From contig OY969622.1 in the NCBI GenBank assembly GCA_963701665.1, positions 160,001 to 224,000 on the forward strand: 64,000 nt of DNA, in the 5' to 3' direction. Of the stretch, positions 38,155 to 56,592 are shown piece after piece (position 1 is the first letter of the stretch; every line of letters begins with the position of its first letter). The notes beneath the pieces were generated by a model. The model saw only the letters and a list, made by a program, of their open reading frames with translations, did not search any database and was not told the DNA's origin. The position numbers and the translations under genes were made by a program. The stretch is from Candidatus Babeliales bacterium. GTDB lineage: Bacteria; Babelota; Babeliae; Babelales; JANWKD01.

Positions 38155-38316
38155 ACGTTTCTCACCTTGTTAGAGTTGTTTAGATTAATGTACTAAAAAA
38201 GAATGGTTTTTTTAAGAGCTTATTTGAAAATTACAACAATATTAACTTGTAAAATTAACATTTTAAACAGAGGTGTCATCCTGAGTGATTGTGTTAAAAG
38301 TCAAATATTTTTATAG

Positions 38317-39258
38317 TCAAGCTCTACATAACTCGCCCCTTTTTAATAGAGCATTGGCAATTATAATGAGCTTATGCATAATAGCAACGATAGCTACTTT
38401 AAAAGGTTTTTTAGCATCCATTAATCGCTGGTAAAATTCCCTTAAAGGAAGATGGTGCTTTACCGTGGTCAATGCACACATATAAAGTGCTTTACGAGGA
38501 ATATGCCTGCCATGCTTAATAAATTTTTTGCCTTTGTAATTGCCGCTTTCATTGTCATAAGGACAGACACCAATTAGAGCGGATATTTTTTTGTCGCTTA
38601 ACTGCCCAAGCTCAGGGACAAAAGAAAGTAATGTTGCAGCTGTAGCTTTACCGATTCCTGGGATTGATTCCAAAATGTTTGATTTTGTATGTAACTCTTC
38701 ATCATCTTTGACTAAATCCTGTATTCGAGACTCAATTGATTTAATTTCACTTTCTAAGAGTGCAATAAATCTTTTTATATCAGGAACATATAATACGTGA
38801 GAAGGATGTTTAAGTCGTGTTTTCTCAGCAGCTAAAAATTTTACTAAATCATTTTTACGGTTAACTAGAGCTTGTAGTTTATGCTGATTCTCACTTTTGT
38901 TAACAATCTCGTAACTAGGAGAATTTTTAGAAGCGAATTCAGCAATTTTTTTAGCATCAATTTTATCGGTTTTACTTTTACAGCCAGTAGCTATAATAAA
39001 AGCTTTTATCCTTCGTGGATCAACGATCCAAAGTGAATATCGGTTCTTTTTGAGTAATTGGGCAAGTAATTGTTCATAGCCACCTGTTGCTTCACAGGCA
39101 ATTTGTGTAACTTGATAGTGAGCTAATTCCTTGATTATGTTCTGTATGCCAACTTCTGAGTTAGCTACTTTAAAGAATTTTCCTATAGGATACACATAAA
39201 TATCGAGATTATTTTTTGAAATATCGACACCTACATATACTTCTGCTATGTTTTTCAT
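38317..39258 (-). CDS. IS110-family DEDD recombinase/transposase
   Basis: GVDISK, CEATG, KTDKIDA, SIPGIG, NESG (candidate catalytic Ser), AIMHKL. Confidence 0.96.
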   Translation of the reverse strand: MKNIAEVYVGVDISKNNLDIYVYPIGKFFKVANSEVGIQNIIKELAHYQVTQIACEATGGYEQLLAQLLKKNRYSLWIVDPRRIKAFIIATGCKSKTDKIDAKKIAEFASKNSPSYEIVNKSENQHKLQALVNRKNDLVKFLAAEKTRLKHPSHVLYVPDIKRFIALLESEIKSIESRIQDLVKDDEELHTKSNILESIPGIGKATAATLLSFVPELGQLSDKKISALIGVCPYDNESGNYKGKKFIKHGRHIPRKALYMCALTTVKHHLPLREFYQRLMDAKKPFKVAIVAIMHKLIIIANALLKRGELCRA

Positions 39259-39261
39259 AAA

Positions 39262-39470
39262 TACCTCAGCCTTGTAAACATACGAGATCGTATACCTAAT
39301 ACGTCTCTAGTGATTGTTCGAGGTAATTTTGTGTAAGCTGATAGTCTCAAACTCAGGAACGGTTCTTCTAAACCAGGAGCGTGACGAGATCTATCAGCTT
39401 TTCTCAAACAACCGATATTAAACAATATTTCATTCTTAAATTATCACAATTTACTCTTAAATGCTTTTTG
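39262..39470 (-). ncRNA. bridge RNA (target-binding and donor-binding loops)
   Basis: Guides CACGCTCCT/TCCTGAG match the target and ACAATCACT/TACAAG match the donor; each pair lies within a closing stem; 5' end approximate. Confidence 0.87.
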
Positions 39471-39642
39471 TTTTAACATACAAGGAGCATAGCGACGTAG
39501 GGATCCAGTCTTTAAAATGAAAAACCTTATCAGACTGGATTCCTACGACAACTTCGTTGTCTCAGAATGACGTCTTTTCTCTAGGCATATTTTTCTCGTG
39601 TGTTGAATGTTTATTGAATTTTAGGAATAGATCTAAGCAAAA

Positions 39643-40188
39643 TTAAGAGTTTCTTTGCAAGAAAAAATGAACGCATACTTGACCAGATGCCATGGTAACT
39701 GGATGCATGCTCGTAAGATGCAAAGAAGCAGTCGATGTATGTTTTTGTAGCTCTTGTAAAAAATGTGTTAAGGAAGAAAATGATAATGCTTGTCCATGAA
39801 GTTCGCCTATCGTTTCATGGGCGTATTCAAAATTAGTTATGCAGATGTCCGCTGGCAACGTTCGTATAAGCTTATCAAAATCTGTTAAGAAAACTGCTTT
39901 TTTAGCAGTGAGCGCCGTAAGGTCATGTATTTTATGTTCAAGTTCAGCGCATCTTTTTTCATGTTCAATGAGTGTATGATCATCGATCATCGTGCACACA
40001 GGATGTAAGACGATATACTGATTTTTGAGCAAGCTCATCTGCCAATACCAATATGCGGTATAAGCTCCTAACGCAGTTATGAGACAACCAGTAAGTATTA
40101 AAGAATAGGTATACCATCTCATGCACGCGTTAAATTCATGTGGCTGCATTGGATTAATGAGGGTGGCTGCGTTACTGCGAATTTTCAT
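39643..40188 (-). CDS. PilN-like protein
   Basis: One TM helix, coiled coil, LPADI.IT.F, L.GQA.S...L..F...L. Confidence 0.6.
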   Translation of the reverse strand: MKIRSNAATLINPMQPHEFNACMRWYTYSLILTGCLITALGAYTAYWYWQMSLLKNQYIVLHPVCTMIDDHTLIEHEKRCAELEHKIHDLTALTAKKAVFLTDFDKLIRTLPADICITNFEYAHETIGELHGQALSFSSLTHFLQELQKHTSTASLHLTSMHPVTMASGQVCVHFFLQRNS

Positions 40189-40849
40189 AACTATGTTTTC
40201 CTAGTAAAAAAAGACCGACATGTCCTGCATTTATTTCTTTTTTCTCATGATTCAAAAGATGTATGCCCGATTGATGGGTTAGATACTGTTCAAGCGCGTG
40301 ACTTCGATAGGTGTTTAATGAAGATAACGCCGTTGGCCATTCTTGTGTAGCACTATTGAGTGCGGTGATGGCACCATTGATTGAACTTACCAAACAACAG
40401 GAAAATGATGTTTGCAGGGCGAGTAATTGATACTGCATCAAATGCTCTCGTCTCATGCCAAAAAGATACACGTGCGCGTGCTCATGCGCGTGTGTTGGCA
40501 TAACGATCGCGTTCCATACCAATGATGATGGTAAATACTGTGCACCATCAAAAGAAGCGAGTGCATCGCGCCCAATAGGAACTATACGTTCGTGCACAGC
40601 TGCGCCCTCAATGCCGATTGCAACATAGCATGAGCCTGCTGCGTGGTGGGTTAAAAATGATGCAATATATTTTTTTAGTGCAGAACTATTAAAAATAATT
40701 CCTTGGTGAAACTCGGAACGTGCGAGTACTACGGTTTTACATACTTTTTGATAGGCTGATACGCCAAATTCAAACATGCTCATGCTGAGTATTGTATCGC
40801 TGAGCAGAAGCGTGATTAATTTTTTAGGTTTTGAAAACAGATGCCACAC
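40172..40849 (-). CDS. divergent PilM-like protein
   Basis: GIIFN, VAI.I.G..V.ER.V pattern; upstream of and overlapping the PilN-like gene. Confidence 0.45.
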   Translation of the reverse strand: MWHLFSKPKKLITLLLSDTILSMSMFEFGVSAYQKVCKTVVLARSEFHQGIIFNSSALKKYIASFLTHHAAGSCYVAIGIEGAAVHERIVPIGRDALASFDGAQYLPSSLVWNAIVMPTHAHEHAHVYLFGMRREHLMQYQLLALQTSFSCCLVSSINGAITALNSATQEWPTALSSLNTYRSHALEQYLTHQSGIHLLNHEKKEINAGHVGLFLLGKHSYENSQ

Positions 40850-40893
40850 ACACTAACCTTATTTTATTTTTTGGTATTACCGTCAGCCAAAAA

Positions 40894-41059
40894 TGTCTTC
40901 CCGAGGCTTTAGCCCTTCTTCGCTGAAGCTTCGCAGGGTTCAGAACCGTGGGGACCTGTTCTTCGAAGTTTTAACGAAGGAGAATCCAAACTTTAATAAC
41001 TTCCTTAAAAATGAATTGATTTTATAAGCTGGGTTGCCACGCATTCGCTCGCAATGACA
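40894..41059. repeat. REP-like doublet with two nested palindromic insertions
   Basis: Matches the reverse complement of 43826-43931 apart from insertions at about 40913-40938 and 40955-40984. Confidence 0.85.
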
Positions 41060-41172
41060 ATTCTCGTTTCAATATGCATTTCCTTTGGCAAAGTTACCAT
41101 CAAATTCGCGCTTTTATTACTATTATTACTGTAAGCACATTCAAAGCTTGGTTGCAAGAGAATATACAGCTG

Positions 41173-56029: not shown

Positions 56030-56592
56030 ATGACAGAAAACCCCAGGGTTTTAAACCTGGGGATGAATGTCATCAAATGCGCGAGTAAAGCAAAAATGTA
56101 AATTTTTGCGAAGCGAGGTTCGTTTTGTCATACTAATGGTATGGCAAAGAAATATTGGCACGGAGCGCATACAACACATAGGCACATGTATCATATAGTT
56201 TGGTTACCGAAATATAGAAAAAAAGTATTAGAAGGAAACGTTAAGAGTAGGTTAGGAGAACTCTTGCGAGAATGTGCAGAAATTAATGCATGGGAAATTC
56301 AGGAATTAAATATTCAGATAGACCATGTACATCTTGTAATACAGTTACCACCAAGTATAAGTGTGAGCAAGGCCGTTCAACTACTCAAAGGCATTTCAAG
56401 TAAAATGCTTAGAACTGAATTGCCTGAAATAAAGAAATTTTTGTGGGGTAATGATTTTTGGGCGGATGGATATTTCTCCGAAACATTTGGACATTGTTCG
56501 GAAGAGACAATTCTCAATTATGTTAGAAATCAATAAAAAGCTTTCATCTCGTGCTTCTAAATCCACGGCTTTTAAGCCGTGTGTTGTTTAAT
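56030..56592 (+). mobile_element. IS200/IS605-family element carrying tnpA only
   Basis: Subterminal hairpins CCCCAGG..CCTGGGG (56041-56062) and CACGGCTT..AAGCCGTG (56564-56581); exact ends uncertain. Confidence 0.8.
56141..56536 (+). CDS. tnpA: IS200/IS605 Y1 HUH transposase
   Basis: HIVWLPKYRK, DHVHL, LW...FW..GYF, YVRNQ. Confidence 0.95.
   Translation: MAKKYWHGAHTTHRHMYHIVWLPKYRKKVLEGNVKSRLGELLRECAEINAWEIQELNIQIDHVHLVIQLPPSISVSKAVQLLKGISSKMLRTELPEIKKFLWGNDFWADGYFSETFGHCSEETILNYVRNQ

Follow-up and report, generated by a model that had tools for sequence, protein, structure and literature searches.

A predicted two-loop bridge RNA at the left end of an IS621-type IS110 element inserted in palindromic repeats of Candidatus Babeliales

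Introduction

What does the non-coding left end of an IS110 element in a Candidatus Babeliales genome encode, and how does this element choose the sites at which it is found? The locus lies in a window of 64,000 nucleotides (contig OY969622.1, positions 160,001 to 224,000), to which coordinates without prefix refer. IS110 orthologues have been mined by the thousands, 5,511 target pairs being reported in PMC11208160; elsewhere 32,190 mined loci and 72 tested orthologues are reported, and the targeting of REP sequences is described as a known habit of the group. Among the best matches of a literature search, no paper joined bridge RNA or IS110 with Babeliales, Dependentiae, or TM6, and published orthologue supplements may hold this element already.

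The region very probably belongs to an intact IS110 element of IS621 type, whose left end encodes a predicted two-loop bridge RNA that would guide the adjacent recombinase in joining the element's own ends to palindromic host repeats. The basis of the bridge RNA reading consists of an intact gene, CT ends, three copies, covariation, and promoter-like sequence at the junction. Features that speak against it are a left target guide with two mismatching bases at each of the three occupied sites, the poor left-target matches of several relatives, a best-matching genomic site that is empty, and a full left end that folds best with the donor loop open.

Results

An Intact IS110 Element With CT at Both Ends

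The recombinase (Table 1) is matched by PF01548 and PF02371 (Pfam) as well as by NCBIfam NF033542 (202.5 bits versus a cut-off of 140), and both the DEDD RuvC-like domain and the Tnp domain with its catalytic serine are present. Its PDB matches are ISCro4, the top match (E 3.3e-37), and IS621 (E 1.5e-35) only. Residues D12, E56, D98, D101, and S238 align with the catalytic residues of IS621 and are invariant in nine of nine aligned proteins. The claim of the initial annotation that an intact IS110 recombinase ortholog is encoded here is borne out by the domain and family matches, the catalytic residues, and the structural matches. The closest named relative is from Candidatus Babeliales (59%), and relatives at E ≤1e-30 are present in 20 of the 261 genomes of the phylum.

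A CT core is found at each element end (39483-39484 at the left, 38284-38285 at the right), where the junction sequences read TATGCTC-CT-TGTAT and ACAATCA-CT-CAGGA, respectively. In the five copies of genome G110, DNA homology extends to the bounds 38284 and 39484, exactly so in three copies, and at the syntenic G110 site the element is absent and an 85-bp gap is found. The non-coding ends are long on the left (about 225 bp) and short on the right (about 30 bp). Membership in the IS1111 group was rejected, as matches of the RNA model lie upstream of the gene, not downstream, in all four elements of the genome. A PilN-like gene (PF05137) and an unassigned neighbour occupy window positions 39643-40849 upstream of the element, likewise on the minus strand; read-through transcription might reach the left end from here.

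Table 1. Features of the element, its predicted bridge RNA, and the interrupted host repeat (window coordinates).
Feature	Position	Strand	Details
IS110 element, both CT cores counted	38284..39484	-	1201 bp; predicted circle 1199 bp
IS110 (DEDD/Tnp) recombinase gene	38317..39258	-	313 aa; D12, E56, D98, D101, S238
Left-end start	39471..39484	-	CT core, right donor TGTAT, -10 box TATGTT 39475-39480
Right end	38284..38316	-	-35 box TTGACT 38299-38304, left donor ACAATCA 38286-38292, CT core
Sub-terminal repeat arms	39471-39477; 38293-38299	-	GTTAAAA; TTTTAAC
Conserved leader segment, candidate RNA switch	39403..39413	-	complementary to 39312-39322; 11 bp, -15.1 kcal/mol
Target-binding loop, 10-bp closing stem	39335..39400	-	fold, inverted pair, stem covariation
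Left target guide CACGCTC-CT	39375..39383	-	CACGCTCCT
Right target guide TCCTGAG	39352..39358	-	reverse complement of CT-CAGGA; own-site match
Target-loop handshake bases TT	39350..39351	-	first base pairs with A, donor position 7
Donor-binding loop	39262..39325	-	arms TACCTC 39320-39325 / GAGGTA 39262-39267
Left donor guide ACAATCA-CT	39309..39317	-	ACAATCACT; matches 7/7 in each of the 20 elements (seven donor types)
Right donor guide TACAAG	39271..39276	-	4/4 non-core in 19/20 elements
Donor-loop handshake bases GC	39269..39270	-	first base pairs with C, target position 7
Left part of interrupted REP-like palindromic repeat	39485..39571	-	left target TATGCTC 39485-39491
Hairpin arms within left repeat part	39496-39511 / 39532-39547	-	
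Right part of repeat	38275..38283	-	CAGGATGAC; right target CAGGA 38279-38283

Guides and Fold of the Predicted Bridge RNA

All eight segments that the initial annotation had assigned to a bridge RNA can be read in the sequence where it had placed them. The arms closing the target loop, 39391-39400 (AAGCTGATAG) and 39335-39344 (CTATCAGCTT), form a 100% inverted pair. At the three occupied sites, the left target guide matches five of seven non-core bases each time and the right target guide 5/5, 5/5, and 4/5. When the 216-nt left end was shuffled 20,000 times with dinucleotides preserved, the four guide matches arose singly 14, 1454, 177, and 3053 times, three of them together 5 times, and all four together 0 times, and a chance origin of the guide matches was rejected on this count.

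The segment 39255-39410 folds as two looped stems at -43.1 kcal/mol (z -2.9), with none of 200 shuffles folding as well; the proposed two-loop shape is thus recovered for this segment. In the minimum-energy structure of the full left end, the donor loop is opened and pairs with the upstream leader. Ahead of the target loop, at the position of a 5' stem-loop, weak AT-rich hairpins occur, and the leader has diverged among relatives except for one motif. A likely ribosome-binding site, GAGG (39264-39267), sits in the 3' stem arm of the donor loop. At gathering scores, Rfam gave no match in the whole window.

Guides Covary With Flanks Among Relatives

Relatives at no less than 41.5% identity comprise 44 loci, from which four duplicates and L130 were left out to give 39 parsed loci; six more (L094, L095, L106, L123, L124, and L128) were dropped because their flanks were cut, their ends could not be located, or the parser missed them, and the resulting set consists of 33 sites of 20 elements. 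With counts that overstate significance, because parsing anchors were hand-written after the sequences had been viewed, the register of each guide was anchored on its own CT, and kinship is disregarded in the permutation, the left target guide agrees with its own flank at 5.08 of 7 positions versus 2.39 when permuted (0/100,000 permutations; 20 elements), the right target guide at 3.82 of 5 versus 1.59 (0/100,000), and the left donor guide at 7.0 versus 5.96 (0/100,000). Pairing of the handshake bases behaves in the same manner, with 0.95 versus 0.43 for the donor loop (0/100,000; 30 of 33 sites pair) and 0.95 versus 0.54 for the target loop (1/100,000; 32 of 33 sites pair). Within the 12 elements at 58% identity or above, the signals of the two target guides persist (1 and 0 of 100,000).

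The pattern of covariation between guides and flanks is plain in the tabulated sites. A lack of such covariation among homologues had been named by the initial annotation as one of the findings that would speak against its reading; covariation is present in the 20 elements and 33 sites. The stems covary as well, with two-sided changes in 13 of the 23 consensus pairs and 95.6% pairing, compared to 31-48% when slid. The IS621-type reading rests on these results taken together, since all four guides were never matched jointly in 20,000 shuffles, guides and stems covary, and identical copies occupy repeat sites.

The donor ACAATCA/TGTA is common to 11 elements which carry 11 different target programmes. 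The description of the element as "reprogrammable" therefore stands in so far as natural retargeting is concerned. A bridge RNA model matches most of 90 further loci, some of which were used for building it, and does so nearly always directly upstream of the gene.

Left-target matches of 3/7 or less occur at eight of the 33 sites (L112 and L205 with 1/7, L091 with 2/7, and five with 3/7), and L092 has a right-target match of 2/5. The locus L112 (G110:C6:~254017-254955), one of the five G110 copies, matches 1/7 on the left and 4/5 on the right and lies within an open frame that resembles an integrase-type transposase by eye. It looks like an off-target insertion, in line with half-match insertions that have been reported.

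Identical Copies in Palindromic Repeats

Three copies, identical over the element, exist in the genome: the window copy, C1:~438959-440159, and C1:~528783-529983. Their identity points to recent movement. Each is inserted at one and the same CT, close to where a palindromic repeat ends, and an empty near-twin of this repeat (C1:267627-267724) runs through the insertion site unbroken. The repeats that hold sites A and B are 97.7% identical, whereas site C belongs to a different repeat subtype. The element's predicted target is T(A/T)(T/C)GCTC-CT-C(A/G)GGA and its donor ACAATCA-CT-TGTA. By pattern search, 27 empty repeat ends of the target type are found in the genome. The best-matching site (C1:1322485; 11/12) is unoccupied, and no site with 12/12 is present in the genome. 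In screens with IS621, double mismatches are reported to be poorly tolerated, and natural motifs to carry 0-2 (PMC11208160).

Two guide mismatches at each site and the similarity of the repeats at sites A and B would also be expected if the copies were inert, or had spread by recombination between repeats, and the RNA were a relic with a drifted left target guide. We regard this as very unlikely, as the three copies do not differ anywhere within the element, the repeat of site C is of another subtype, and the gene, the promoter boxes, the stems, and the handshake bases have all remained intact.

If the IS621-type reading is correct, target choice might still need the hairpin of the repeat as a second, structural determinant beyond the guides, as in ISPpu10. 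Each of the three occupied sites falls within the repeat though they score only 9-10 of 12, the hairpin with its 16-bp arms stops a few bases short of the left target, and ISPpu10 is reported to set a precedent (10.64898/2026.03.19.712850). However, among empty sites with a non-core guide match of at least 10/12, 8 of 12 lie within the repeat, and among those with at least 9/12, 22 of 60 do so; given the latter fraction, three occupied sites out of three is a weak argument. Survival of intergenic insertions would account for the pattern equally well, and the G241 sites as well as a G110 site within an open reading frame are, by eye, without such a repeat end. A structural determinant is thus conceivable, but not the likely explanation.

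The genome encodes a paralogue, D (L083; C1:534756-535939), with 69% protein identity to the recombinase. Its donor and both donor guides are the same, its target loop is different, and it is inserted in a second repeat family with eight empty copies. The target guides of D match its own site at 7/7 and 4/5, but the site of the window element at 1.7/7 and 1/5, and, conversely, the target guides of the window element match the site of D at 0/7 and 1/5. A genome search with the bridge RNA model, built from 13 relatives, returned the three copies and D and nothing else of weight, and no orphan bridge RNA beyond these four elements was encountered among the 150 of 296 candidates that were scored.

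REP-like repeats are abundant genome-wide, a terminal 11-mer occurring in 111 copies versus about 4 expected, and in the window they are located, for example, at 39485-39571, ~40890-41080, and ~43920; further repeat types near 40890-41080 are common to G108-G110. A Y1_Tnp (IS200-type) gene is found at window positions 56174-56533, and its copies comprise five identical-scoring frames of 144 aa, three of them in tandem at C1:1253004-1254495, and one broken locus. As source of the repeats, a REP-associated transposase was rejected: the two Y1_Tnp copies viewed share flanks, like a mobile IS200-type element, and no link was found. Contigs from four DNA sequencing runs (9-14 of 30 bins covered, depth 2-3) showed no joint, at a coverage too low to bear on circles or expression. 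Their single loose end, at 39483, agrees with the empty paralogous repeat at C1:267714 rather than with the present site in an empty state.

A Promoter-Like Junction and a Sub-Terminal Repeat

When the two ends are joined, a promoter-like arrangement, TTGACT-17-TATGTT, results in the sequence. Among the 20 elements, TTGACT is found in 16 and TATGTT in 17. A consensus scan of the left end detected no internal promoter (six sites in the region versus 5.4 by chance).

The donor is bracketed by a 7-bp inverted repeat, TTTTAAC/GTTAAAA, in the window element and in paralogue D. Sub-terminal inverted repeats of at least 6 bp are present in 10 and of at least 3 bp in 18 of the 20 elements, two-sided changes occur in G173, G252, and L003, and the contiguous length is 4.8 versus 3.7 when permuted (28/100,000). 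Lengths of 2-3 bp for the IS110 and 7-17 bp for the IS1111 group are reported in PMC11208160. The 7-bp repeat is AT-rich and overlaps the promoter, and it is for these reasons considered a minor variant.

Complementarity Between a Conserved Leader Motif and the Donor Loop

The one conserved motif of the leader is complementary to the stem arm of the donor loop together with the left donor guide (39312-39322). It might belong to an RNA switch built into the same element, with a leader-paired mRNA form and a bridge form. The long transcript would first fold its leader onto the 5' strand of the donor loop, by which the donor guide would be masked and the ribosome site freed; binding of recombinase, or 5' trimming, would then flip the RNA to the bridge form and close the ribosome site in a negative feedback. 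In model folds, presence of the leader lowers the unpaired probability of the donor guide from 0.69 to 0.14 and raises that of the GAGGT site from 0.00 to 0.63, and the two constrained folds are 4 kcal/mol apart (-55.3 versus -51.2). The opening of the ribosome site, however, is not predicted in G173, G241, m121, G230, and m122, and the lowest-energy switch fold pairs part of the ribosome site with coding sequence.

The comparison of relatives is similarly divided. The motif is conserved although the rest of the leader has diverged, matching changes occur in G230 and G252, and the mean pairing energy with the donor-loop strand is -9.9 kcal/mol, and the three segments used as controls give -5.4, -5.1, and -6.0. 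A 24-nt stretch directly ahead of the target loop pairs with the donor-loop strand better than its shuffles do in 11 of 13 close relatives, but the motif was found post hoc and this stretch was picked after it had been seen; with shuffles of the whole leader, the 5% level is passed by no more than 4 of the 12 close and 3 of the 8 distant elements. The pairing is weak or absent in paralogue D and G029, and G110 carries a non-compensated change. The switch remains a tentative and rather improbable reading of the leader. It would be with the same reserve that one might say of this Babeliales clade that the bridge RNA doubles as a two-state switch, alternating between a translatable, guide-masked mRNA and an active bridge. 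Among the papers listed by the literature search, none describes a cis switch of this form between leader and donor loop.

The motif also resembles the reverse complement of ACAATC, and single-stranded excision products have been reported; it might therefore repeat the left donor in inverted orientation and pair as DNA within a folded, single-stranded donor molecule. Against this stands the stronger pairing with the RNA donor-loop strand than with the donor copy of the right end, observed for 10 of the 12 close elements (mean -9.9 versus -6.0, RNA energies), and the canonical right donor guide already fits the canonical junction. Owing to this stronger pairing, the fold-back donor is disfavoured, and we consider it very unlikely.

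Discussion

The IS621-type reading follows the model of bridge recombination described for IS621 (PMC11208160, PMC11208158, PMC13626964). The left end would be transcribed into a two-loop bridge RNA from a promoter made by the joined ends, and this RNA would guide the adjacent recombinase to join the element ends, as donor, to palindromic repeats, as target. By analogy to IS621, read-through expression might be followed by circle formation and junction-driven synthesis of the RNA, a tetramer would assemble on the two loops, the top strand would be cleaved after CT by means of the serine, and exchange would be assisted by the handshake bases. Whether such elements are cut out or copied out is a point on which two preprints disagree.

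As judged from its sequence, the element is a new member of the IS621 bridge recombinase group. With IS621 of E. coli (PMC11208160, PMC11208158, PMC13626964; PDB 8wt6-8wt9), as far as described in these sources, it shares PF01548 and PF02371 with aligned catalytic residues, a predicted RNA from the left end in which the target loop precedes the donor loop, the CT core, handshake bases, a junction promoter, and targets of REP type. In contrast, the protein is distant, N84 of IS621 aligning with D80, donor and target are its own, the right target guide pairs with five bases beyond the core, and the sub-terminal repeat is 7 bp long instead of the 2-3 bp reported for the IS621 group. Also, no conserved 5' stem-loop is seen and a leader complementary to the donor loop is present instead. 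This leader and the 7-bp sub-terminal inverted repeat would be the additions to the known scheme. ISCro4/IS622 (10.1101/2025.05.14.653916; PDB 9t56) employs the same guide scheme; it is 88% identical to IS621 and has been tested in human cells, whereas activity of the present element is predicted.

From Pseudomonas putida, ISPpu9 and ISPpu10 (PMC8450116, 10.64898/2026.03.19.712850) are likewise reported as IS110 elements in REP repeats. For ISPpu9, a 5' leader structure is described to control translation of the transposase via antisense small RNAs (PMC8450116), whereas the candidate control in the present element is a leader pairing in cis with the donor loop. ISPpu10 is reported to require a stem-loop at its target (10.64898/2026.03.19.712850). 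The seekRNA pair ISEc21/ISMch6 resembles our element in its upstream non-coding RNA and its junction promoter, and natural retargeting is described between these relatives, which are about 70-72% identical (PMC11187229). They belong, however, to a longer transposase class (345-385 aa), for which no target duplication is reported (PMC11187229), while the enzyme described here is of IS621 length (313 aa) and its element has CT at both ends.

As a distant and compact bridge recombinase with donor, target, and handshake code all read out, the element may be of value as a tool. The 11 target programmes on one unchanged donor provide a natural panel, and the co-residence of the window element and paralogue D, with a shared donor and different repeats, permits a direct test of cross-mobilisation. 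If the switch existed, the level of the enzyme would be coupled to the availability of the guide, removal of the leader would raise recombination, the double use of one transcript as guide and message would be explained, and it would be seen which part engineered systems should trim.

Some relatives deviate in arrangement. In L130, a relative with 43% identity, a degenerate RNA-like hairpin precedes the gene (53-175, 28 bits) and an intact copy resembling a bridge RNA follows it (1177-1330, 88.6 bits). The left guide of the latter agrees with the upstream flank at 6/7; relocation or a tandem copy without gene would describe this arrangement. In L002 and L092, the right flank repeats sequence from upstream of the element and mismatches the right target guide, which suggests a local rearrangement, and in L086 a tandem duplication affects the first ~19 bases of the left end. 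Finally, L096, L109, and L204 (G013) possess a TT core at the right end together with a matching change in the right donor guide, and in this relative the donor handshake base is unpaired.
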